64,000 nucleotides of DNA, taken from contig CAWHAA010000004.1 in the NCBI GenBank assembly GCA_963827275.1, positions 160,001 through 224,000 of the forward strand. Direction: 5' to 3'. The stretch is from an uncultured Spirochaetota bacterium (GTDB taxonomy: Bacteria; Spirochaetota; UBA4802; UBA5550). Under the pieces are notes generated by a model. That model was given only the letters and a program-made list of their open reading frames with translations. It was not told the origin of the DNA and made no database searches. A program made the position numbers and the translations under genes. Each line of letters opens with the position of its first letter. Position 1 is the stretch's first letter. Positions 1,009 to 16,451 of the stretch are shown in pieces.

Positions 1009-1830
1009 TCATTGCATTTTCAGATATTCTTCGTATTCCTTGATCTCGAAAAGGTTGGGATTGTCCCAGGTCCTGTCAAAGAGGGATTTGTCGTCTTTTG
1101 ATTTGTAATAGTTGTCGGTATGCACGAGGAGATGGTACGCCCGGCGGTCGTCCGCCGAGGCGCGTCCGATGAGCTCGGCGAGCTCCTCGTAGCTTGAGCG
1201 GCCGAAGTCCTTTTTCTTCTCCTGCGAAAATTTTGTTTCGAGCAGCGAGAAGAGCGCGTAGCGCTTGCCGTGCTTGACTTTTTTTATCGCCTTTGAGTAG
1301 CGGTAGAGGCGCATCGAGTAGAGGCGCTCCTGGAAATTGTCAGCCATCACCATGTCGATCCGGGCGTCCTCTGTGTCCCGGTAGCCGAGGCGCAGGTAAT
1401 GGCGGGGGAGATACTGGTTCGATTTGACCACGCCGGGGGCGAACCCGTTGAGGAGCCGCTTTGCCTCACGGATGTCCCTGGCCAGGGTCGCCTGGTACAG
1501 GTCGATCAAAATTTTTTGCGCCTTGCGTATCTCTTCCCATGATTCGCCGAAGAGGAACTTCATGTACAGGGTCTGCGCGATCATGTCGCGTTGAACCGCC
1601 TCCTTGAAAAATTTTTTCTCCTCGTCCGAACCCATGTTGGTTATCGATGTGTTTATGAAGTAGAAAAAATAACGGTTGTCCTTGAGGCCCTTTTCCGCGT
1701 TCCTCTGCCTGCCGGCGTTCAGGCTTGACCTGGTCCTCTGCGCGTCCAGCTGCGGGGCGAACGCGATGATCGCGCATATGACGGCGGGGATCAGGATATG
1801 GCGGGATGGTCGTGATTTCATAGTTCTCAT
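1009..1830 (-). CDS. Secreted/surface protein resembling the Leptospira OmpL37 family
   Basis: Signal peptide (ILIPAVICAIIAFAPQLDA). Motifs FINTSITNMG..E.K..FKEA.Q.D, RHYLRLGYRD and KRYAL recalled from OmpL37-like proteins; recollection only, not searched. Confidence 0.55.
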   Translation of the reverse strand: MRTMKSRPSRHILIPAVICAIIAFAPQLDAQRTRSSLNAGRQRNAEKGLKDNRYFFYFINTSITNMGSDEEKKFFKEAVQRDMIAQTLYMKFLFGESWEEIRKAQKILIDLYQATLARDIREAKRLLNGFAPGVVKSNQYLPRHYLRLGYRDTEDARIDMVMADNFQERLYSMRLYRYSKAIKKVKHGKRYALFSLLETKFSQEKKKDFGRSSYEELAELIGRASADDRRAYHLLVHTDNYYKSKDDKSLFDRTWDNPNLFEIKEYEEYLKMQ

Positions 1831-1884: not shown

Positions 1885-2847
1885 TCAGAGTTTGAATAAC
1901 ATCCCCTCGGTGGCGATATGTATCTTTGTCGTTTCGTTTTTGCAATTTTCGCCATGCTCGATCGCGGCCAGATAGTTTTCATGGAGCTTCGAGTCAGGGT
2001 ACGCCGGCTCGTGGTGCGTCAGAACGAGGTTTTTCACTTTCCAGCGGAGGCCGCAGTTGACCGCCATGGTGTAACTGGTATGTCCCCAGTCGAATTTCGT
2101 GAATGACTCGTCGAGCGTATACTGGGCGTCGATCACGAGCAGGTCGGCGAGCTGGAAGAAATCGAGGACCGCGTCATGGCCGTTTTCGAATATCTCGCCG
2201 GTGAACTCCGCGTCGGTGGCGAATATAAAGGTTTTGCCCGCCTGCCTGAAGCGGTAGGCGAAACTGCCGCCGGGGTGCTTCAGGGGGAAGAAATCGACGA
2301 CGAGGTCCTCCTCCAGCTGGAGTGGCTTCCTCTCCCTGACGTCCAGCTGGACATATTCCTTTGTCGATTCGGTTCCCTCGAAGGTCGCGGGGAAATAGGG
2401 CGCCCTCATCTGGTCCGTCAGGTATTTTTTCTGGTCCTTGAAGGGCGAGTAAAACTTGAGGGTGTTCCCCTTGATGTAAAGGGGAGTGAAGAAGGGGAGC
2501 CCCTGGATATGGTCCCAGTGGTAATGGGTCATGAAGATATCGACCATGCCCTTGCCGCGGCCGCAGTCCCCCTTCATCAGTTAATAGCCGAGGAGCCTCA
2601 TGCCGGAACCGCAGTCTATGATGTATATCTTCCCGCTGTTCGATTTGACGCTGACGCAGGTGGTATTGCCGCCGTAAACGTATTTCAGGTCGCTGGGAAG
2701 GGCCTCGATGAATTCCTGGACATCTGACGTGCCGTTAAGGCCGGCCTGGATGGCGAGTTCAACGATCTTCTGGATTTTCTTTGAATATTCGCTGTTTGTC
2801 GTTGGAGATGGAAGAGATCCCCGCACCCCCCACAGTTTTATCTGCAT
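1885..2847 (-). pseudogene. MBL-fold metallo-hydrolase (RNase Z/phosphodiesterase-like), interrupted by an in-frame TAA at 2581-2583
   Basis: N-part has LWGVRGS, YGGNTTCV, IIDCGSG; C-part has THYHWDHIQG, HPGG, FATD, WGH, THHEP. Both parts are in one frame joined by GGC TAT TAA CTG ATG. May be an intact gene with a base-call error. Confidence 0.8.
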
Positions 2848-4481: not shown

Positions 4482-6089
4482 TCATTCAAGGAGAAGCGTG
4501 GCCGACGCCTCGATGCGTGATTGTATGGAGCGCGTTCCGGAAAAGCGGTGCTCGTACCCGACGGTGATCCTGCTCCCGCGGCAGCGCGACGTGATCCGGC
4601 AGGCGACGCTGTCCGATGTCGTATCGATGCTGGCCATGCGGCTTATTGAGTCGCGGAACGCGGCGCGTGATGCGTAGACCGGGTTCCCGGGTGAAATATG
4701 GTAGCGCGCATAGCGCAGGTCAAGGCGGAAAAAATGGAAGGCGCGGAGAGAGAGCCCGGCCCCGATTGACCCGGAATAGCGTGACCGCCCCTTCTTCTGG
4801 AGCGTCCCCCTGAGGCGCAGGCTGACCGATTTCATGATAAGGACCTCCGCCGATGATTTCAGGCGCAGGCTCCTGTCAACGCCGCGGTTGCCGCCCTCTT
4901 CGAGGTGGCTGACCGTCGCGGTGAACGAGCCCTTCCCCGGCGCGCGGTAGCTGATGAACGCGTCCTCGCGCACCGCGTAGGGCCGGTACCTCTCGTATCC
5001 CGCGACAGCGGCTTTTTTCTCGGCGAAGGATGCGCACCCCAGCGTCAGGCCGCGCAGCGGCCGCACGCCGATCTCCGCCATCCAGGATGTTTCAGCGCGG
5101 CTGTCCCCCGAGCTGTACGACGCGTAGAAGCCGCTGTCGGTGTGCTTGCCCGTGAAGGAAAGGGTGCATCCCTGGTGGCGGAATTTCAGCCCGAACAGGA
5201 CCCCGGTCCCGGATCTCCTCCGGCGCCCGCCTGCCGCGGTTGAATGGACGGCGTTCGGGAACCCTAATTCCATGAACATCTCGATTGCGTCGTCGCGATA
5301 GCGCGCGAAAAAGCCGTACGAGTATACAGACAAAACTCCCTCCGGCATGCCCCGGTCCCCGTAGTCCCAGAGCAGGCGCCGGGAGCAGGAGCGGTCGATC
5401 GACGTGTGGATGAAATATGACTGGAGAAGCAGGTGTCCGCCGATGCGCAGCATGACAATGCCGCCTGCGTCGCTGATTTCAACCGGCTCGGAATAGCGGT
5501 AGTCCTTCCGCGTCCTCAGGAGTATCGACGTGAAGGAGCTTCCCGTCACATCCGGAAGCGACCGGTCATTTCGCACAAAGCGCTCCCGTGATGAATAGAA
5601 CCCCGTGAGGGATAGTGACAGGGGCCCGAACGAGCCGGCCGGCCCCGCGGCTATGCCCCGGAAGGCATGAAGCGGGCTGCCGGAGCCGCAGGGGGAGGAG
5701 GGAGCGCCGTCGCTGACGACCGTTTTGCGCGAAAATGGATCGGGCACGGGCGGCTTTTTTTTACCCACCAGGAGCCCCGCTCCGAAATTGAGGTAGTAGT
5801 TTCCGATGGTGCACTCAAAATGGGGAGAGATGCCGCGCATGTCGATATACCAGGTAAAGCGGTCCTCCTTCCTGTCGCCGATATGCACGTGGGTGAAGCC
5901 GGCGGCGCTTTCGCCGAACGTGACTGTCGCCGAGTCCCGTATGAAGCGCATCTCGTTGCCGTCGTAATCAAGCGCGTCCTGCCGGTATTCCGTTTTTGCC
6001 GTGAAGCGCGTGGCCGGGGCCCCCGGCTCTTTCGCCTGCGCCGGGAACGTGGGGATGAGCACGGCCATGATCAGAGCGGCGCGGCGCAT
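4482..6089 (-). CDS. Large predicted outer-membrane beta-barrel protein, like the barrel part of FCB-group HhH/ComEA-associated proteins but with no HhH domain
   Basis: Signal peptide (…FPAQA), IGNYYLNFGAGLL and FRGIAA motifs, many alternating amphipathic strands, ends in a beta strand. Confidence 0.6.
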   Translation of the reverse strand: MRRAALIMAVLIPTFPAQAKEPGAPATRFTAKTEYRQDALDYDGNEMRFIRDSATVTFGESAAGFTHVHIGDRKEDRFTWYIDMRGISPHFECTIGNYYLNFGAGLLVGKKKPPVPDPFSRKTVVSDGAPSSPCGSGSPLHAFRGIAAGPAGSFGPLSLSLTGFYSSRERFVRNDRSLPDVTGSSFTSILLRTRKDYRYSEPVEISDAGGIVMLRIGGHLLLQSYFIHTSIDRSCSRRLLWDYGDRGMPEGVLSVYSYGFFARYRDDAIEMFMELGFPNAVHSTAAGGRRRRSGTGVLFGLKFRHQGCTLSFTGKHTDSGFYASYSSGDSRAETSWMAEIGVRPLRGLTLGCASFAEKKAAVAGYERYRPYAVREDAFISYRAPGKGSFTATVSHLEEGGNRGVDRSLRLKSSAEVLIMKSVSLRLRGTLQKKGRSRYSGSIGAGLSLRAFHFFRLDLRYARYHISPGNPVYASRAAFRDSISRMASIDTTSDSVACRITSRCRGSRITVGYEHRFSGTRSIQSRIEASATLLLE

Positions 6090-7363
6090 AGATCACGTGC
6101 CTTTTTCTTTTTATCCGCGTCAGTCCACCGCAGCGCGTCAATCCTTCCGGCAAGGGCCTCGCGCTGTCCCTGCGACGCCAGGTCCGAGAGCTCCAGCGCG
6201 GTGGACGCGGGAATGCCGAGGGCGAGCAGCTTTTTAAAGAGTTCTTTCCGGGCTTTGTCGATACGCTCCCTGTCACGGTACGCATCCGCGGGGCTTGGGG
6301 CATCGGTAGCGAGCCCGGTGGTATGCTCAAGGAGGCGGTCGATCTCCTGCTCCGACAGGCCTATCTGTAAAAGGCCGTTCCGCGAGAGCGGGCCGATGGT
6401 CTTCCTGTATTTCATCATGCGCTCGGCCATTGCCCTGTCGAGGCCGGGGACGGACTCGAGGGACTCCATGCCGCAGGCGTTGAGGTCTGTTTTTACGGCG
6501 GTGCGCCCGCCGCGCAGGCGGGAGAAGAGGTCGCCGTACGCGAGGGATTCCACCGGTATCTCCGCGGCGGCGAGTGTCACCCCCACTGAATGGGTGAATC
6601 CCAGGTGGGGGTGATATTTAAGGCCATACGAGGCTGACAGGTATTTATAGATGAACAGGAGCGCGGCGGTAAAGGTCCCCGTCTCGCGGGCGTATCCCAC
6701 CCTGACGGAAAAATATTTTAAGACATTCGCTGACGCCGAGACGCAGTGGACGTATCCGTTCGCGGTGCTGTTGCAGTTGTAGGCGAGCACAAGGCCCCTG
6801 AAGGGCTTGAGCGCGGCGCCGGCGCTCCAGTCGGGGGGGAGCAGGTCCCTCCGCGTCGTGACGAAAAGGGACCCGAGGTTCTCCTGCTGGAAGGCCAGGT
6901 CGATCCAGGTGAAGGGCGACAGCACCACCGAGCATCCGCCGTCAACAAGGTGGATCGTTTTTGTGACCTCCGGCGTGTTAATGGCAAGGTTGTAGTAGCG
7001 GACGCAGGCCCCGATTGAGATATACCTGACCGGCATATACCCGATCTCCGCCCCGGCGATGTTCTCGGCGTATTCTTCAAGGCCGAACCGGCTCCAGAAG
7101 GCCCGTACCCCGCATCCCTTCCCTCCGTAGCCCGCCCGGAGGGCCGATGAATAGAGGCCGGACATCGAATAGGGCATGCCCCCTGATATCGCCAGGTAGG
7201 GATACCGTATGGCGGGCAGGTAGGCGGGATTTGAAACCGCGTCGGGCAGCGACGAGTCGCCGGCGGCCTGGATGAACGGGAAGAGCGCCGCGGGCGGGGC
7301 CTCCCGGTAGTCGAAGGCGCAGATGGCGGCCCGCGCGATGAACAGGATGAGGGCTATCTTCAT
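6071..7363 (-). CDS. PorV/FadL-like beta-barrel fused to a C-terminal ComEA-type helix-hairpin-helix DNA-binding domain
   Basis: Start at 7363 (MKIALILFIARAAICA) overlaps the upstream TAA. Barrel motifs NPAYL, FGLEEYAE, YHPHLGFTHSVGV, then DLNACGMESLESVPGLDRAMAERMMKYRKTIGP (HHH_3-like). Confidence 0.75.
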   Translation of the reverse strand: MKIALILFIARAAICAFDYREAPPAALFPFIQAAGDSSLPDAVSNPAYLPAIRYPYLAISGGMPYSMSGLYSSALRAGYGGKGCGVRAFWSRFGLEEYAENIAGAEIGYMPVRYISIGACVRYYNLAINTPEVTKTIHLVDGGCSVVLSPFTWIDLAFQQENLGSLFVTTRRDLLPPDWSAGAALKPFRGLVLAYNCNSTANGYVHCVSASANVLKYFSVRVGYARETGTFTAALLFIYKYLSASYGLKYHPHLGFTHSVGVTLAAAEIPVESLAYGDLFSRLRGGRTAVKTDLNACGMESLESVPGLDRAMAERMMKYRKTIGPLSRNGLLQIGLSEQEIDRLLEHTTGLATDAPSPADAYRDRERIDKARKELFKKLLALGIPASTALELSDLASQGQREALAGRIDALRWTDADKKKKARDLCAAPL

Positions 7364-8391
7364 TACCGGTACCGGCTCACAATGATGTAGATCGTCTCCT
7401 CGTCGGAAGCGCGCAGGGCCGGGGACACGGCCTCTATCTTGCACAGGTACAGGCCGGTGTGCGTGGCGCGGCGCTGAAGCAGCGGGTTCCAGAAAAGCTT
7501 CGCAAGGCCCGGGTTCATCGAGGGGAAGGGCGGGGACTCATGGATGAGCGCGCCTGTCATGGAGAACACGCGGAGCTTGATAAAGCAGGGAACGAACACG
7601 AATACCGGGACCATGCCGCTGCCGAACAGCATGTGCCCCGGGATGACGGTTATTTTTTTTCTGAGTGCCTTGAACAGCCGTTTTCCCATGAACAGCGGCA
7701 CGGTGATGTTGGGGCAGCCGGGGGTCTGTATCGACGAGATCACCCAGTCCGCGGCGCTGTCAGTGTCGGGGCCGCCCTGCCGCGACACGCTTGCGTAGGA
7801 GGCCAGGCCGTCCGGGCCGATATTCACCGCGCACTCCTGGATGTTATCCGAGGCACAGGTGTCCCACTGCGCCTGCGAGAAGGCGGAGGTAAGGTATGAT
7901 GCGACGGTGTCATTGGGCGAGCCGTCGCGGTTGGAATAATAGACAAAGTCGATGATCCCGCCGTTCGACGGGTCGTCGTCGGTGTCGATCGCGACAACGC
8001 CCTCGGTGTTCCAGAGGCTCGCCGAATAGTTGGCGCAGTACACGTCTATATGGCCGTTTCCGTCGGTGTCGCCGGTGATATCGGTCTCATCCGGGACGTC
8101 GGGACGGGCGCAGTGGACGACGATGAAGCGGTCGTCGTACGGGGTCTCCTCCCTGTCGTAGCTGTAGATGGTGACGGGGTCCGCGGAGAGGGGCTCGCTT
8201 GCCCCGTAATACATGGTCACGTACAGCGAGGAGATATCCCTCTTTTCCTTTACCGGGCCGGCCATGGCCAGCTCCACCCAGTCGTCCTGCGTGTTGGTGG
8301 CGAATTCATTGATCAGGAGCGAGGCGTGGAGCCGTGTCCCGGCGAACAGTAACATGACAGCAAGAGCTGCAGAAATGAATGGTCTGCGCAT
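7363..8391 (-). CDS. Secreted lamin-tail-domain protein with a C-terminal FlgD-Ig/T9SS-CTD-like domain
   Basis: Signal peptide, then LLINEFATNTQDDWVEL (LTD start) and …TPG (LTD end). Asp-rich DTDGNGHID Ca-binding-like loop. C-terminal IKLRVFSMTGALI…W…TGLYLCKIEA. Confidence 0.7.
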   Translation of the reverse strand: MRRPFISAALAVMLLFAGTRLHASLLINEFATNTQDDWVELAMAGPVKEKRDISSLYVTMYYGASEPLSADPVTIYSYDREETPYDDRFIVVHCARPDVPDETDITGDTDGNGHIDVYCANYSASLWNTEGVVAIDTDDDPSNGGIIDFVYYSNRDGSPNDTVASYLTSAFSQAQWDTCASDNIQECAVNIGPDGLASYASVSRQGGPDTDSAADWVISSIQTPGCPNITVPLFMGKRLFKALRKKITVIPGHMLFGSGMVPVFVFVPCFIKLRVFSMTGALIHESPPFPSMNPGLAKLFWNPLLQRRATHTGLYLCKIEAVSPALRASDEETIYIIVSRYR

Positions 8392-8498
8392 GGCGTCTCC
8401 TTTTCATGGTGAACGAACGGGAGACGCCGATCGGGAAAAATATTATCGGGGAAGGATAAAATTACTGCGCAGCGGCGGGGACCGGCCCCGCCCGGCTG

Positions 8499-13091: not shown

Positions 13092-16000
13092 CTAGCAATG
13101 GCTGATGAAGACCGGCACCAGGCCAATTCCATCAGAGAGGGAATCCAGCGCCTTCCCTACAACTGTCCCGATTTTATCCAGGGTATCGATGGTGCCCGGC
13201 ATGCCGCTCCCCGGCGTATCGGAGGTGACCACCAGGTCGCCGGGGCGTACCGGCCCCTTCCGCGCATCGAGCTTGCACAGGACAGTGCCTGCAAGGGCTA
13301 CCGGGTACACCTTCACCTCTTTCCCGCTGTTGTTGATCAGCAGCGCGGGATTGCCCGAAACGACGCCGATGACCGACCGGCTGTATTCGGTCCGCGAGCG
13401 TGATAGTATGGATTTACCCGCATCGCTGACCACGAGGAGGTCGCCCGGCATGACATATTCCGCGTCATCCACCTCAAACAATTCAACAAGGTTCGCGGGG
13501 AATTTTTCCTGGTCGCCCGTCGCGGTGTTCTGTACGATTATTTTTCCGTTAAACACCGATTTCCCGTTCACGAGGAGGGCATCGCCGTTGCCCGCAAGGT
13601 CGACCGAGCCGTCGTAGTGCTTGATCTTCCCGAAACCGTCTGCCACGAGCGAAAAATCATGCTCGCTGGCGAAGACACCCCCGGCGCCGAAGCGTGACAG
13701 GCCTATGACCCCGCACCCCCCGCCCGATTTTTTATCTCCGCCTGATGACTGGCCGCGCACGCCGATATGGGCGCTGTGCCCCAGCACGCCGTATGAATGG
13801 CTCCATCCCGCTGCCGATATTCCCGCGATGCCCGTGACCCCGACAGAGCCTGATTCGGAGGAGTCGTTTTTCGCGTATATGATCGCGGAATCGCCCGGCG
13901 GCGGGGTAATCTGAGAGAACGGCTCGTGCCTGCTGCCGTGAACCGAGATTGTCCCGGCGTGGCTGCTGAAATCATGCGTGACCGGGGCGTAGTCATGGGT
14001 GTGCGGGAGCGGCGTGCGCGCGTCGTCGAGACGGGGGTCGGTTGACTGCACCGCGCATCCGGGTTTTGCTTCGTTGTTCCGGGCCAGGGCCACGATTCCC
14101 GCCGCCGTTTCGGTCGCCGGTTTGAGCCGCCGGTCATTCCCCTGCACCGCGACACCCGGAGCGTCTTCGCCGTCCTCTGCGAGCTCGACGATGCCCTTGG
14201 CTGCGGTGGTGGCGTCCTTGAGGCGCTTGTCGCTGCCCTGGACGGCGACGCCGGCTTTTGTTTCGCCGTCTTCTGCGAGCTCGACGATGCCCTTTGCGGT
14301 GGTGGTGGCGTCCTTGAGTCGCTTGTCGTTGCCCTGGACCGCGACGCCGGCTTTTGTTTCGCCGTCCTCTGCGAGCTCGACGATGCCCTTGGCGGCGGTG
14401 GTGGCGTCCTTGAGGCGCTTGTCGCTGCCCTGGACGGCGACGCCGGCTTTTGTTTCGCCGTCCTCCGCGAGCTCGACGATGCCCTTGGCGGCGGTGGTGG
14501 CGTCCTTGAGGCGCTTGTCGTTGCCCTGCACGACGACGCCGGGGCTTACTTCGCCGTCCTCTGCGAGCTCGACGATGCCCTTTGCGGTGGTGGCGGCGTC
14601 CTTGAGTCGCCTGTCGCTGCCCTGGACGGCGACGCCGGCTTTTGTTTCGCCGTCCTCTGCGAGCTCGACGATGCCCTTGGCGGTGGTGGTGGCGTCCCTG
14701 AGGCGCTTGTCGCTGCCCTGGACGGCGACGCCGGCTTTTGTTTCGCCGTCCTCTGCGAGCTCGACGATGCCCTTTGCGGCGGTGGTGGCGTCCCTGAGGC
14801 GCTTGTCGCTGCCCTGGACGGCGACGCCGGCTTTTGTTTCGCCGTCCTCTGCGAGCTCGACGATGCCCTTTGCGGCGGTGGTGGCGTCCCTGAGGCGCTT
14901 GTCGCTGCCCTGGACGGCGACGCCGGCTTTTATTTCGCCGTCCTCTGCGAGCTCGACGATGCCCTTTGCGGCGGTGGTGGCGTCCCTGAGGCGCTTGTCG
15001 CTGCCCTGGACGGCGACGCCCGGCGCGTCTTCACCGTCCTCTGCGAGCTCGACGATGCCTTTATATACGGTAGCGGCCTCCCGAAGCCGCCGGTCGTTTG
15101 CCTGCACCACGGTGCCCGCGGTGTCCGTTCCGTCCGCGGCGAGCTTGCAGATGCCGAACGACTCAACGGTCGCCTTGTGGAGCCGGGGGTCATTACCGGT
15201 TACGGCGGCGTTCTCCTTGTACATCCCGTCGGGGCAGAGCTTGACGATGCCGAAATTATCGGTGCCTGCCTCCTTGAGGCGTGAATCGTTTCCCTGCACG
15301 GCGACGCCCGGCTTTGTCTCGCGGTTGTGCGCGAGCCGGACAATGCCCGGCTTCAGGTCAGTGGCGGCTTTCAGGCGGGTGTCGGACGCCTGGACGGCGA
15401 GTCCTTTGTCAGTCTCCCCGTCATCGGCCAGGCGGACGATGCCCTTGAAGACCGTGGTCGCGTCGCGGAGACGCCGGTCGTTGCCCTGCACGACGGTGCC
15501 GGGCGAATCGTCGCAGTCTTTGGCGAGGCGGACGATGCCTGCCTGGAAGATGGAGGAGTAGGGGGTCAGGTCGCCGATGTTATGGGTGTGAAAAGGATTG
15601 AAGGGCGCGGCCGATATCTCCAGGTCCGCGATTCTTATTGAATATTTGCCGTCCGTTTGCTTCAGCCCTTTTGTCTCGATGCGGATGAACCGCGCCGGCC
15701 TGATGTCGGTGTTCCAGAAATATTTTTTCGATACCTGCGACTTGAAGTTTTTCTCTTCAAGGAGCGGCAGCCACACGTTGTTGTCAGAGCTGGTCTCGAT
15801 AAAAAAGCTTTCGGGGAAGCCCTGCTGTGCCGACCCGAGTATGATCCGGTTCACGTGGAAGATCTTGCCCATGTCGATAAAGAGGGACTCCTTGGTCGCG
15901 TGTGTTTTCGGCTCCGATTCCCAGAACGAATCCACGCTCTCCGGAAAAAGGTTCTCCGGCCCGCGCGACGGCGACGACGCGCTGCTTGCCCTGATCTCGC

Positions 16001-16451
16001 TGACGCCGGCGATCCCGGTGCGCACGCGCCCGATCTCCGAGAAATATTTTCCCTCGTTCTGCTGCGAGGCGATGATGAGTATCTTCAGGTAGCGCAGGAG
16101 CGTCAGGGGTATGTCGAGCCGGTAGGTGTCGGTGTCGAGCACCAGCTTCCTTTCCAGATGGATGACCATCCAGTTGTCGCCGTCGAGGCTTCCCTCAAAG
16201 CGTATGTCGCGGGGGAAGGTCCTGGCCCCGTTGGGCGATGCCGCCATCTCAATATAGTCGACGGTCACCTCTTTGTGAAAATCAAGGACGATGTACTCGA
16301 CGATGTTTTCGTCGCTCTTCCTGCTGCACCAATGGCCCCCGTCGCGGAGGACATTGAAGACCGAAAAGGACTCATGCTGCTCGCTCGATACGGCGTGTAC
16401 CTTTGACGCGTGGTCCTGCTTGTGGCTGATGTTGATGTATTCCATTACCAT
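13092..16451 (-). CDS. Discoidin (F5/8 type C)-domain fibre protein with 16 tandem 32-aa repeats and a C-terminal chaperone-like domain
   Basis: Two discoidin-like modules (HWCS…YIVLDF…FP…SLDGDNW…RYLKI; FWES…IDMGKIFHVNRI…FPESF…ARFIRI). Repeats GIVELAEDGETKAGVAVQGSDKRLKDATTAAK. C-terminus VIGVVS.NP…VALAG.V..K.DA…GD..V.S…GTVVGKAL. Confidence 0.85.
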   Translation of the reverse strand: MVMEYINISHKQDHASKVHAVSSEQHESFSVFNVLRDGGHWCSRKSDENIVEYIVLDFHKEVTVDYIEMAASPNGARTFPRDIRFEGSLDGDNWMVIHLERKLVLDTDTYRLDIPLTLLRYLKILIIASQQNEGKYFSEIGRVRTGIAGVSEIRASSASSPSRGPENLFPESVDSFWESEPKTHATKESLFIDMGKIFHVNRIILGSAQQGFPESFFIETSSDNNVWLPLLEEKNFKSQVSKKYFWNTDIRPARFIRIETKGLKQTDGKYSIRIADLEISAAPFNPFHTHNIGDLTPYSSIFQAGIVRLAKDCDDSPGTVVQGNDRRLRDATTVFKGIVRLADDGETDKGLAVQASDTRLKAATDLKPGIVRLAHNRETKPGVAVQGNDSRLKEAGTDNFGIVKLCPDGMYKENAAVTGNDPRLHKATVESFGICKLAADGTDTAGTVVQANDRRLREAATVYKGIVELAEDGEDAPGVAVQGSDKRLRDATTAAKGIVELAEDGEIKAGVAVQGSDKRLRDATTAAKGIVELAEDGETKAGVAVQGSDKRLRDATTAAKGIVELAEDGETKAGVAVQGSDKRLRDATTTAKGIVELAEDGETKAGVAVQGSDRRLKDAATTAKGIVELAEDGEVSPGVVVQGNDKRLKDATTAAKGIVELAEDGETKAGVAVQGSDKRLKDATTAAKGIVELAEDGETKAGVAVQGNDKRLKDATTTAKGIVELAEDGETKAGVAVQGSDKRLKDATTAAKGIVELAEDGEDAPGVAVQGNDRRLKPATETAAGIVALARNNEAKPGCAVQSTDPRLDDARTPLPHTHDYAPVTHDFSSHAGTISVHGSRHEPFSQITPPPGDSAIIYAKNDSSESGSVGVTGIAGISAAGWSHSYGVLGHSAHIGVRGQSSGGDKKSGGGCGVIGLSRFGAGGVFASEHDFSLVADGFGKIKHYDGSVDLAGNGDALLVNGKSVFNGKIIVQNTATGDQEKFPANLVELFEVDDAEYVMPGDLLVVSDAGKSILSRSRTEYSRSVIGVVSGNPALLINNSGKEVKVYPVALAGTVLCKLDARKGPVRPGDLVVTSDTPGSGMPGTIDTLDKIGTVVGKALDSLSDGIGLVPVFISHC
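14004..15539 (-). repeat. Coding tandem repeat, 16 x 96 bp; ten near-identical units at ~14100-15059
   Basis: GCGAGCTCGACGATGCC recurs with a 96-bp period; the Gly codons of units 1 and 16 fall at 15539 and 14099. Confidence 0.95.

Follow-up and report, generated by a model that had tools for sequence, protein, structure and literature searches.

Organisation of the locus

We analysed a 64,000-nucleotide stretch of DNA (the window) from an uncultured Spirochaetota bacterium (GTDB lineage Spirochaetota; UBA4802; UBA5550; NCBI GenBank assembly GCA_963827275.1, contig CAWHAA010000004.1, forward-strand positions 160,001 to 224,000), in which three overlapping minus-strand genes encode a presumed surface cargo with a domain like the lamin-tail domain (LTD; gene 1), a small outer-membrane barrel with a helix-hairpin-helix (HhH) tail (gene 2) and a large outer-membrane barrel (gene 3). 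The open reading frames (ORFs) span 8391-7363 (342 aa), 7363-6071 (430 aa) and 6089-4482 (535 aa). Genes 1 and 2 meet in a TAATG junction (7365-7361) and genes 2 and 3 share 19 nt (6071-6089), so that the sequence bears out the layout given in a preliminary description of this DNA. The domain anatomy proposed there was likewise supported overall, the labels of gene 1 fitting its own protein weakly. Signal peptides were called for all three genes by eye from the sequence, together with an N-terminal helix in the structural models. The features are as follows (positions in the window, minus strand throughout):

8397..8402, minus: AAGGAG, ribosome-binding site of gene 1, 5 nt before the gene (sequence)
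7363..8391, minus: gene 1, 342 aa, signal peptide, acidic LTD-like domain and a tail resembling FlgD-Ig and the C-terminal domain (CTD) of type IX secretion system (T9SS) cargo (homologues, syntenic counterparts)
7702..8322, minus: gene 1 residues 24-230, LTD-like domain with an Asp-rich insert and a DxDGNG motif (conservation)
7366..7686, minus: gene 1 residues 236-342, FlgD-Ig/CTD-like tail (weak family matches; profile match to syntenic tails)
6071..7363, minus: gene 2, 430 aa, small barrel and predicted periplasmic HhH tail, starting at the TAATG junction
6560..7315, minus: gene 2 residues 17-268, 14-strand barrel with N-terminal hatch, FadL/PorV/PorP fold (model)
6314..6499, minus: gene 2 residues 289-350, ComEA-type (HhH)2, first hairpin degenerate, second retaining its Gly (PF12836, profile matches)
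6083..6292, minus: gene 2 residues 358-427, basic helical domain, probably a worn second HhH-like unit (alignment to small-barrel tails)
4482..6089, minus: gene 3, 535 aa, 24-strand outer-membrane barrel lacking plug domain and HhH (model, hhalign)
5655..5804, minus: gene 3 residues 96-145, GNY..NFG.GL strand and the long extracellular loop that follows (113-row alignment)

The order gene 1-gene 2-gene 3 was conserved in 36/36 related loci, which were picked by gene 3 and represent 36 of the 37 relatives with a gene 3 match in a single-query search. Genes 1 and 2 overlap in all 36 loci and genes 2 and 3 in 32. The set includes one gene 1 truncated by a contig end and one marginal gene 3 match (E 0.004). 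Each gene is single-copy in the host genome, and the homologues that carry names come from Spirochaetota. Since the flanking genes differ between genera, the trio itself is the unit. Its conserved order shows that the arrangement is not due to chance. Gene 3 as a single query found matches in 38 of 41 genomes. In one relative (G002), gene 3 is split over two frames (L064:4941-6577), with genes 1 and 2 intact.

A large barrel of an undescribed family

The model of gene 3 (113 sequences; pLDDT 93.8, pTM 0.88) contains 24 strands, counted from its listed elements, which are joined by short turns on the periplasmic side and long loops on the outside, and it lacks a plug domain, as anticipated by the proposal of a large barrel bearing a GNY.LNFG.GL motif. 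The motif reads GNYYLNFGAGL at residues 96-106; its G96 and G105 are invariant in 113/113 rows, G145 is also invariant, and G103, L106, G109, D117 and P139 are found in at least 90% of the 113 rows. The best fold match among 48,161 chains was the fimbrial usher FimD (FimD/PapC), likewise a 24-strand barrel (Z 17.9 over 372 residues), at a root-mean-square deviation (rmsd) of 4.9 Å and 9% identity, and so a likeness of barrel size only. Unlike FimD/PapC, gene 3 has neither plug nor periplasmic usher domains, and no chaperone or pilin genes lie near it. The fold searches gave no close relative of gene 3, and a sequence search of the PDB returned nothing beyond designed repeat proteins and porins. 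Gene 3 represents an undescribed barrel family.

A gene 3 profile searched against 1.84 billion proteins gave 185 matches, and the 150 of these that were listed included 16 weak matches to proteins of 570-820 aa, 13 of them with an N-terminal HHH_3 domain. A profile of such HhH-barrels, whose named members belong to Bacteroidota and WOR-3, aligned with gene 3 over 445 columns (99.8%, E 1e-29). By profile comparison, gene 3 is thus a homologue of a widespread Bacteroidota HhH-barrel of ~690 aa, in line with the preliminary description, which placed the HhH of genomes of the Fibrobacteres-Chlorobi-Bacteroidetes group on the large barrel.

The strand positions that face inward, as judged by strand alternation and not from coordinates, hold 18% K/R against 10% D/E in gene 3 and 6% against 7% in gene 2, taken as a control, and the net charge of gene 3 averages +14.6 over the 113 rows. 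A basic lining is common in many porins too. Complex prediction for gene 2 (residues 17-430) with gene 3 (20-535) scored 0.00 in two runs, which is evidence neither way.

A small barrel of the PorV/FadL fold

The model of gene 2 (pLDDT 83) shows a plugged barrel whose 14 strands lie within residues 56-265, with a hatch at the N-terminus and, in addition, two helical domains. The barrel matched FadL and PorV structures at Z 26.4-26.9 and rmsd 2.4-2.5 Å over ~245 residues (for PorV chain 8gl6_F, Z 26.4 and 2.4 Å with 244 aligned), chains of the BAM complex at Z ~22-23 and OmpG at Z 18. It also matched the Bacteroidota small barrels (hhalign 99.6%), and its Atlas neighbours carry the names PorV/PorQ and PorP/SprF. 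Gene 2 itself has no match to the shuttle models NF033709, PF11751 or PF19572, and four of its homologues match NF033709 at 44-68 bits, below the cut-off of 90. Model and PF12836 match agree with the preliminary description of gene 2 as a PorV/FadL-like barrel ending in a ComEA-type HhH. Double-stranded DNA does not fit through a plugged barrel of 14 strands, and gene 2 is therefore probably an anchor or shuttle, not a DNA pore. Two other PorV-like barrels are fused to FlgD-Ig/CTD-like domains (L126:6485-9113 and L127:5999-7291); the former also ends in OmpA and comprises two ORFs, and the latter has its CTD-like part at the N-terminus.

Signature and origin of the HhH tail

The HHH_3 domain (PF12836) of gene 2 scored 29.8 bits against a cut-off of 27 (E 6.7e-7) and is present in 32/32 aligned homologues; its profile matches ComEA (8dss, 8dfk) and EEPD1. 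In the model, the barrel has an even number of strands and the tail comes after the last of them, a topology that would place the tail in the periplasm. With ComEA/ComE (PF12836, TIGR01259; 8DSS, 8DFK) it shares the (HhH)2 fold and the invariant structural Arg R320 and second-hairpin Gly, and would share the periplasmic location, and it differs in being fused to an outer-membrane barrel and in missing, in 32/32 sequences, the first-hairpin Gly and the lysines corresponding to K62/K63. In Vibrio ComEA, the changes G60E and K62/63A abolish transformation (excerpt of PMC3879209). By this rule DNA binding by the gene 2 HhH is doubtful, yet possible, and to judge from the residues it looks eroded in this lineage.

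Other residues of the tail are retained. The gene 2 family keeps R315, R320 (equivalent to Vibrio R71) and G335 without exception, and has K or R at position 339 in 18/32 sequences. The mean net charge is +8 for the tail (+3 in this protein) and +4.3 for the basic helical domain. With the first hairpin worn, binding by gene 2 would probably be weaker, or may have moved to the second hairpin and the basic tail. The ComEA-related 2DUY misses both lysines and retains the Gly, and in other spirochaetes the ComEA Gly plus Lys occur in 7/11 small-barrel HhHs. Residues 358-427 of gene 2 align to the second HhH unit in 7/11 small-barrel tails of other spirochaetes.

The preliminary description held that the HhH had moved between the two barrels and that they must consequently form one complex. 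We dropped this idea, together with that of a shifted gene boundary, because both barrels bear an HhH elsewhere. Most large barrels in other spirochaetes keep their own, degenerate HhH, and in two Chlorobia-like genomes the large barrels keep a degenerate HhH and the small barrels carry one too; the HhH was therefore not handed over. Either version is also opposed by the gene 2 tail, whose two units are laid out as in other small-barrel tails. The first HhH unit of gene 2 does not discriminate between the two sources (mean 28.4 bits against the small-barrel profile and 30.3 against the large-barrel profile, the former higher in 9/32). More simply, this lineage probably lost the large-barrel copy and retained the small-barrel tail. 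The case for coupling between the barrels comes from synteny and co-inheritance, not from a domain move.

An LTD-like protein with a CTD-like tail

The LTD-like domain of gene 1 begins with INE...DWVEL and ends with TPG..N, and its residues 76-160 hold 19 acidic against 4 basic positions, with DTDGNG at 108. Twelve residues are invariant in 31/31 homologues (E29, W38, E40, D104, G107, D108, N112, G113, T223, P224, G225 and N228). We take the DxDGNG motif to be probably calcium-binding.

Gene 1 has no Pfam or NCBIfam match, PF00932 (LTD) included, and no match over the cut-off to the T9SS cargo models TIGR04183, TIGR04131 and PF13585; the sequence search of the PDB returned nothing for it. Its 31 homologues gave weak matches to LTD (one, E 0.02), CHU_C (three, best 7e-4) and FlgD_ig (two). 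In an 11-sequence set, a C-terminal profile of gene 1 matched, at E values as low as 3e-8, the FlgD-Ig tails of the clear LTD proteins that occupy its position in other spirochaetes. The slot there holds a Pfam LTD protein, mostly over the cut-off and usually with a FlgD-Ig-like tail. Thus, the Asp-rich loop of the preliminary description stands, and its LTD and FlgD-Ig/CTD labels are weak on gene 1 itself and clear in the syntenic counterparts. The gene 1 profile had no match in genome G311 and none in 41 Bacteroidota loci containing the large barrel. LTD is mentioned in a figure legend of PMC8289736.

Distribution in spirochaetes

Judged by the gene 3 profile, which matched 43/45 genomes of the same order and 2/255 other spirochaete genomes, the family seemed restricted to this order, a view that the Bacteroidota profile overturned. 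The latter profile gave matches covering the barrel in 29/255 spirochaete genomes outside the order, seven further genomes with HhH-only matches being left out of this count. In 20 of these 29 loci, fetched besides those of G094 and G238, an HhH-bearing small-barrel gene lies directly upstream in 10 (one called by position and HhH only), and an HhH-less one in a single locus. These 20 loci also include LTD cargo in six, PLD-family genes in two and an endo/exonuclease-phosphatase gene in one. The large barrel stands alone in 7/20 (L201-L207; ~600-640 aa, HhH not detected).

Eight genomes have a cargo-type gene at the locus (a non-LTD cargo in L095 and L197), seven of them with an SprA-like match; such a match occurs in one of four genomes with both barrels and no cargo seen. 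This co-occurrence, in small numbers, fits export of the cargo through SprA. In G094, the gene after the large barrel and the next one encode BamG-like barrels (NF053685, below cut-off; L095:2726-5463), and weak small-barrel matches also come after the large barrel in L188-L190.

Distribution in Bacteroidota

The HhH-barrel profile matched 175 of 201 Bacteroidota genomes at E <1e-20, a cut chosen after viewing the data, with two borderline cases counted as present; the other 26 gave weak matches or none. We fetched 41 Bacteroidota loci, one from a single-protein scan and 40 picked down the ranking, and identified a gene 2 homologue upstream of the large barrel in 29, directly so in 28. Genome-wide, the small barrel is found in 142/175 genomes with the large barrel and 4/26 without it. 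Gene 3 and gene 2 are homologous to this two-barrel pair and in the same order, and the present locus differs from it in bearing its HhH on the small and not the large barrel, and in its attached LTD-CTD gene. The module is therefore not spirochaete-specific, since Bacteroidota carry it widely, as do several families of spirochaetes; the neighbourhood survey proposed in the preliminary description confirmed both the synteny of the trio and a coupling of the two barrels that extends across phyla. In one locus with a small barrel unlinked from the large one (G454, L187:5675-7410), the small-barrel gene and a gene for a DNA/RNA non-specific endonuclease are divergently arranged.

The large barrel is not tied to the SprA/T9SS translocon. 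SprA_N was not found in 39 Bacteroidota genomes, of which all 39 have the large barrel and 12 the small barrel, and SprA is present in 26/26 genomes lacking the large barrel. The 39 SprA-less genomes, which at a guess we take to be green sulfur bacteria, are small and have neighbours in common; they thus appear to form a single lineage and count as one contrast, not 39.

The distribution of the barrel is largely complementary to that of the known Bacteroidota DNA transporter. Strong DUF5689 matches (E <1e-25, a post hoc cut) occur in 18/26 genomes without the large barrel and 10/175 with it. DUF5689 marks RA0C_RS04920, which is essential for transformation in Riemerella (excerpt of PMC8459023) and is homologous to DdbD of a Bacteroides DNA-use locus (excerpt of 10.1101/2025.03.18.642099). 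The Riemerella RA0C_RS04915/RS04920 and Bacteroides DdbCD systems resemble the present module in their proposed pilus-free capture of DNA at the surface and its transport across the outer membrane, whether to transform the cell or to feed it; they differ in consisting of a TonB-dependent transporter and a DUF5689 protein, with no homology seen to the trio and a largely complementary distribution. The gene comEC directly follows the barrel in 1/41 Bacteroidota loci.

Competence and secretion genes in the host genome

We identified ComEC in 41/41 genomes of the order, and DprA and an SprA-like translocon in the host genome; PilQ and PilT were not found in this genome (92% complete). The search suggested by the preliminary description accordingly recovered competence genes and a putative translocon in a host with neither pilus component detected. 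The sole secretin is GspD, over its cut-off and within a type II secretion system (T2SS) operon (gspC-N), and the sole PilT-family match is GspE; a secretin is present in 41/41 genomes of the order. The stronger of two ComEC matches (L123, G000:C7:333000-341019) is fragmented, lies at a contig end and has neighbours that look proteobacterial by eye; it is possibly contamination, and the native comEC is probably G000:C5:252517-253305.

Matches to HHH_3 in the host genome are confined to gene 2, GspK and DnaE, and TIGR01259 has no match there, so that gene 2, judged by domain matches, is the only ComEA candidate in a genome with ComEC and DprA. Free-standing ComEA candidates were found in 2/41 genomes of the order, a count that excludes weak matches on gene 2, DnaE-sized and other ORFs. 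One of the two genomes is G021 (89% complete), in which gene 3, the trio and SprA were not found; in G026, gene 3 was not found, SprA is present and there is no free ComEA. Matches of ~700-790 aa to the ComEA model in eight relatives were rejected as Tex-like, one by scanning and the rest by likeness.

Two SprA-like ORFs of ~1800 aa match TIGR04189 at 80-90 bits (cut-off 200), at G000:C4 ~66995-72640 (L121:8996-14636) and on G000:C11 (L122:7475-13075). Both share neighbours (M23 peptidase, DHH, PP2C-like), and the C4 copy is interrupted close to the C-terminal end. At least one SprA-like ORF is present in 37/41 genomes of the order and 79/301 spirochaete genomes. GldM/PorM was found in 0/3 genomes of the family (92-98% complete) and in 2/2 Bacteroidota controls, a search that a divergent homologue could escape and that left out PorK, PorL and PorN. 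This is possibly a T9SS-like translocon without the known motor.

The trio resembles the T9SS pairs of type B CTD proteins with PorP/SprF, and PorV (NF033709, PF11751; 6H3I_F, 8GL6_F), in having a CTD-like cargo directly upstream of a plugged 14-strand FadL-fold barrel (beside gene 2 in 36/36 loci, the CTD call being weak) and an SprA-like translocon in the same genome. It differs in that gene 2 has no PorV/PorP model match and bears an HhH tail, a third, 24-strand barrel follows, the SprA match of the host is below cut-off and GldM was not found.

Other genes in the window

On the minus strand at 13092-16451 lies a gene for a 1119-aa protein whose middle contains many near-identical tandem repeats of ~27 residues, and which we presume to be fibre- or adhesin-like with carbohydrate-binding-like N-terminal domains. 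A gene at 1885-2847 (minus), which we take to encode a metallo-beta-lactamase-like fold, is split into ORFs of 88 and 230 aa and is a single ORF of 320 aa with the same start in a relative (L060:8514-9473), so that a frameshift or assembly error is probable. The signal-peptide protein encoded at 1009-1830 (minus) resembles L055:9691-10563, itself above the cut-off for the Leptospira OmpL37 adhesin family.

Proposed function and alternatives

Building on the observed anatomy, folds, synteny and co-inheritance of the trio, and on the independence of its large barrel from SprA, we propose that it is an old and widespread module for pilus-free capture and import of extracellular DNA, for transformation, feeding or both, a proposal to which we give even chances. 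Sec would carry gene 1 across the inner membrane, and its CTD-like tail would direct it to the SprA-like translocon for passage through the outer membrane. The gene 2 barrel would then anchor it at the surface, by analogy with type B CTD proteins held by PorP/SprF shuttles encoded next door (excerpt of PMC12618676). The acidic, probably calcium-loaded LTD domain of gene 1 might serve as a surface receptor or nuclease partner, the weakest step of the scheme. The unplugged, basic-lined barrel of gene 3, whose fold comes from the model, could conduct DNA or its fragments, and HhH domains beneath the barrels would hold incoming DNA in the periplasm and hand it to ComEC or nucleases. In this order, only the gene 2 tail would be left beneath the barrels, its presence and its erosion both being observed.

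Several observations weigh against this proposal. The first hairpin of the gene 2 family has the Gly of the G60 position in 0/32 and a Lys at K62 or K63 in 0/32 sequences, with Arg at each of these two positions in 1/32, and the large-barrel HhHs inspected are likewise degenerate. No nuclease was seen among the conserved neighbours in 40 loci of the order, only some of which were scanned, and ComEC and DprA occur almost everywhere and are no proof of competence. In Bacteroidota, ten genomes hold both the large barrel and a strong DUF5689, porD is divergently adjacent to the barrel in 14/41 loci (its identity scanned in two members), PorD being a T9SS translocon partner (excerpt of PMC10994853), and, among the SprA-less genomes tested, 5/5 carry a stronger ComEA-like gene elsewhere and 4/5 a secretin. 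The contingency tables rest on few lineages, with thresholds set after the data were viewed. The large barrels that stand alone are not explained by the proposal, and, in the parts of PMC8459023 and PMC11532111 drawn on here, neither the Riemerella screen nor the P. gingivalis knock-outs pointed to the barrel.

The main alternative is that the trio is an accessory for T9SS-type display or outer-membrane biogenesis, with gene 1 as cargo, gene 2 as its dedicated shuttle and anchor and gene 3 as a docking barrel, as in PorV-SprA or BamG-BamA, and with the HhHs as worn protein-interaction scaffolds (as in GspK and PsbU) that have no DNA role in this lineage. We consider this possible, if somewhat unlikely. 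The PorV/FadL/BamG fold of gene 2 and the degenerate first hairpin in 32/32 speak for it, as does a cargo-then-shuttle order matching that of the type B CTD/PorP pairs (PMC12618676, in part). So do the SprA-like ORFs in 37/41 genomes of the order, together with G021, which lacks an SprA-like match and gene 3 alike, the adjacency of porD in 14/41 Bacteroidota loci, and the presence of the small barrel in 12/39 SprA-less genomes against 130/136 that have both SprA and the large barrel. However, the large barrel is kept in 39/39 SprA-less genomes and was not found in 26 genomes with SprA, the small barrel tracks the large barrel rather than SprA, the same module in other spirochaetes includes nuclease-like genes and hairpins of the canonical ComEA type, and the search for GldM was negative in 3/3 genomes of the family (2/2 controls positive).

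A DNA module might also use the T2SS secretin and pseudopilus for entry, with gene 2 as an anchored substitute for ComEA and gene 3 passing small breakdown products or acting as a scaffold. The secretin in 41/41 genomes of the order, the full gsp operon of the host and the long conserved extracellular loops of gene 3 (101-142, 173-200, 465-491), which could narrow its lumen, are compatible with such a route, which we nonetheless regard as improbable, as no PilT-type retraction ATPase was found in the host genome, the Bacteroidota HhH is fused to the large barrel itself, and the barrel's distribution complements that of the known outer-membrane DNA transporter system. Export or tethering of nucleic acid (surface or biofilm DNA), or transport of another polyanion, appears very unlikely: no biosynthesis or export genes occur among the conserved neighbours, and the neighbours in other lineages are ComEA-like and nuclease-like, although the basic inward residues and net charge (+14.6) of gene 3 indicate neither direction nor substrate, and the structures closest to it in fold, if only at Z 17.9 and rmsd 4.9 Å, are export ushers with 24 strands.

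Implications for DNA entry

We found no description of this module in the literature, subscription papers and supplements lying outside the scope of that search. The module is undescribed, widespread and built partly from known parts, and a role in DNA import is plausible. The route that DNA takes across the outer membrane of diderms lacking type IV pili is an open question, and in P. gingivalis, where ComEA and ComEC have been knocked out, the outer-membrane step is still unknown (both according to excerpts of PMC11532111). The family presented here, found in 175/201 sampled Bacteroidota genomes and in several spirochaete families, is a candidate for that step. More tentatively, and against our own expectation of the odds, the 24-strand family might be an undescribed kind of outer-membrane channel dedicated to DNA. 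With a T9SS-type shuttle barrel as its partner and ComEA domains tethered to the barrels, it would be the ancestral way for DNA to enter Bacteroidota and deep-branching spirochaetes without pili, a role that the TonB-dependent RS04915/DdbC system would later have taken over in some Bacteroidota. Even if the trio serves display, it would bring together an SprA-like translocon, a shuttle and a CTD cargo in spirochaetes in which GldM was not found. A barrel with a confident model and a co-inherited partner makes the question of DNA entry testable in cultured hosts.

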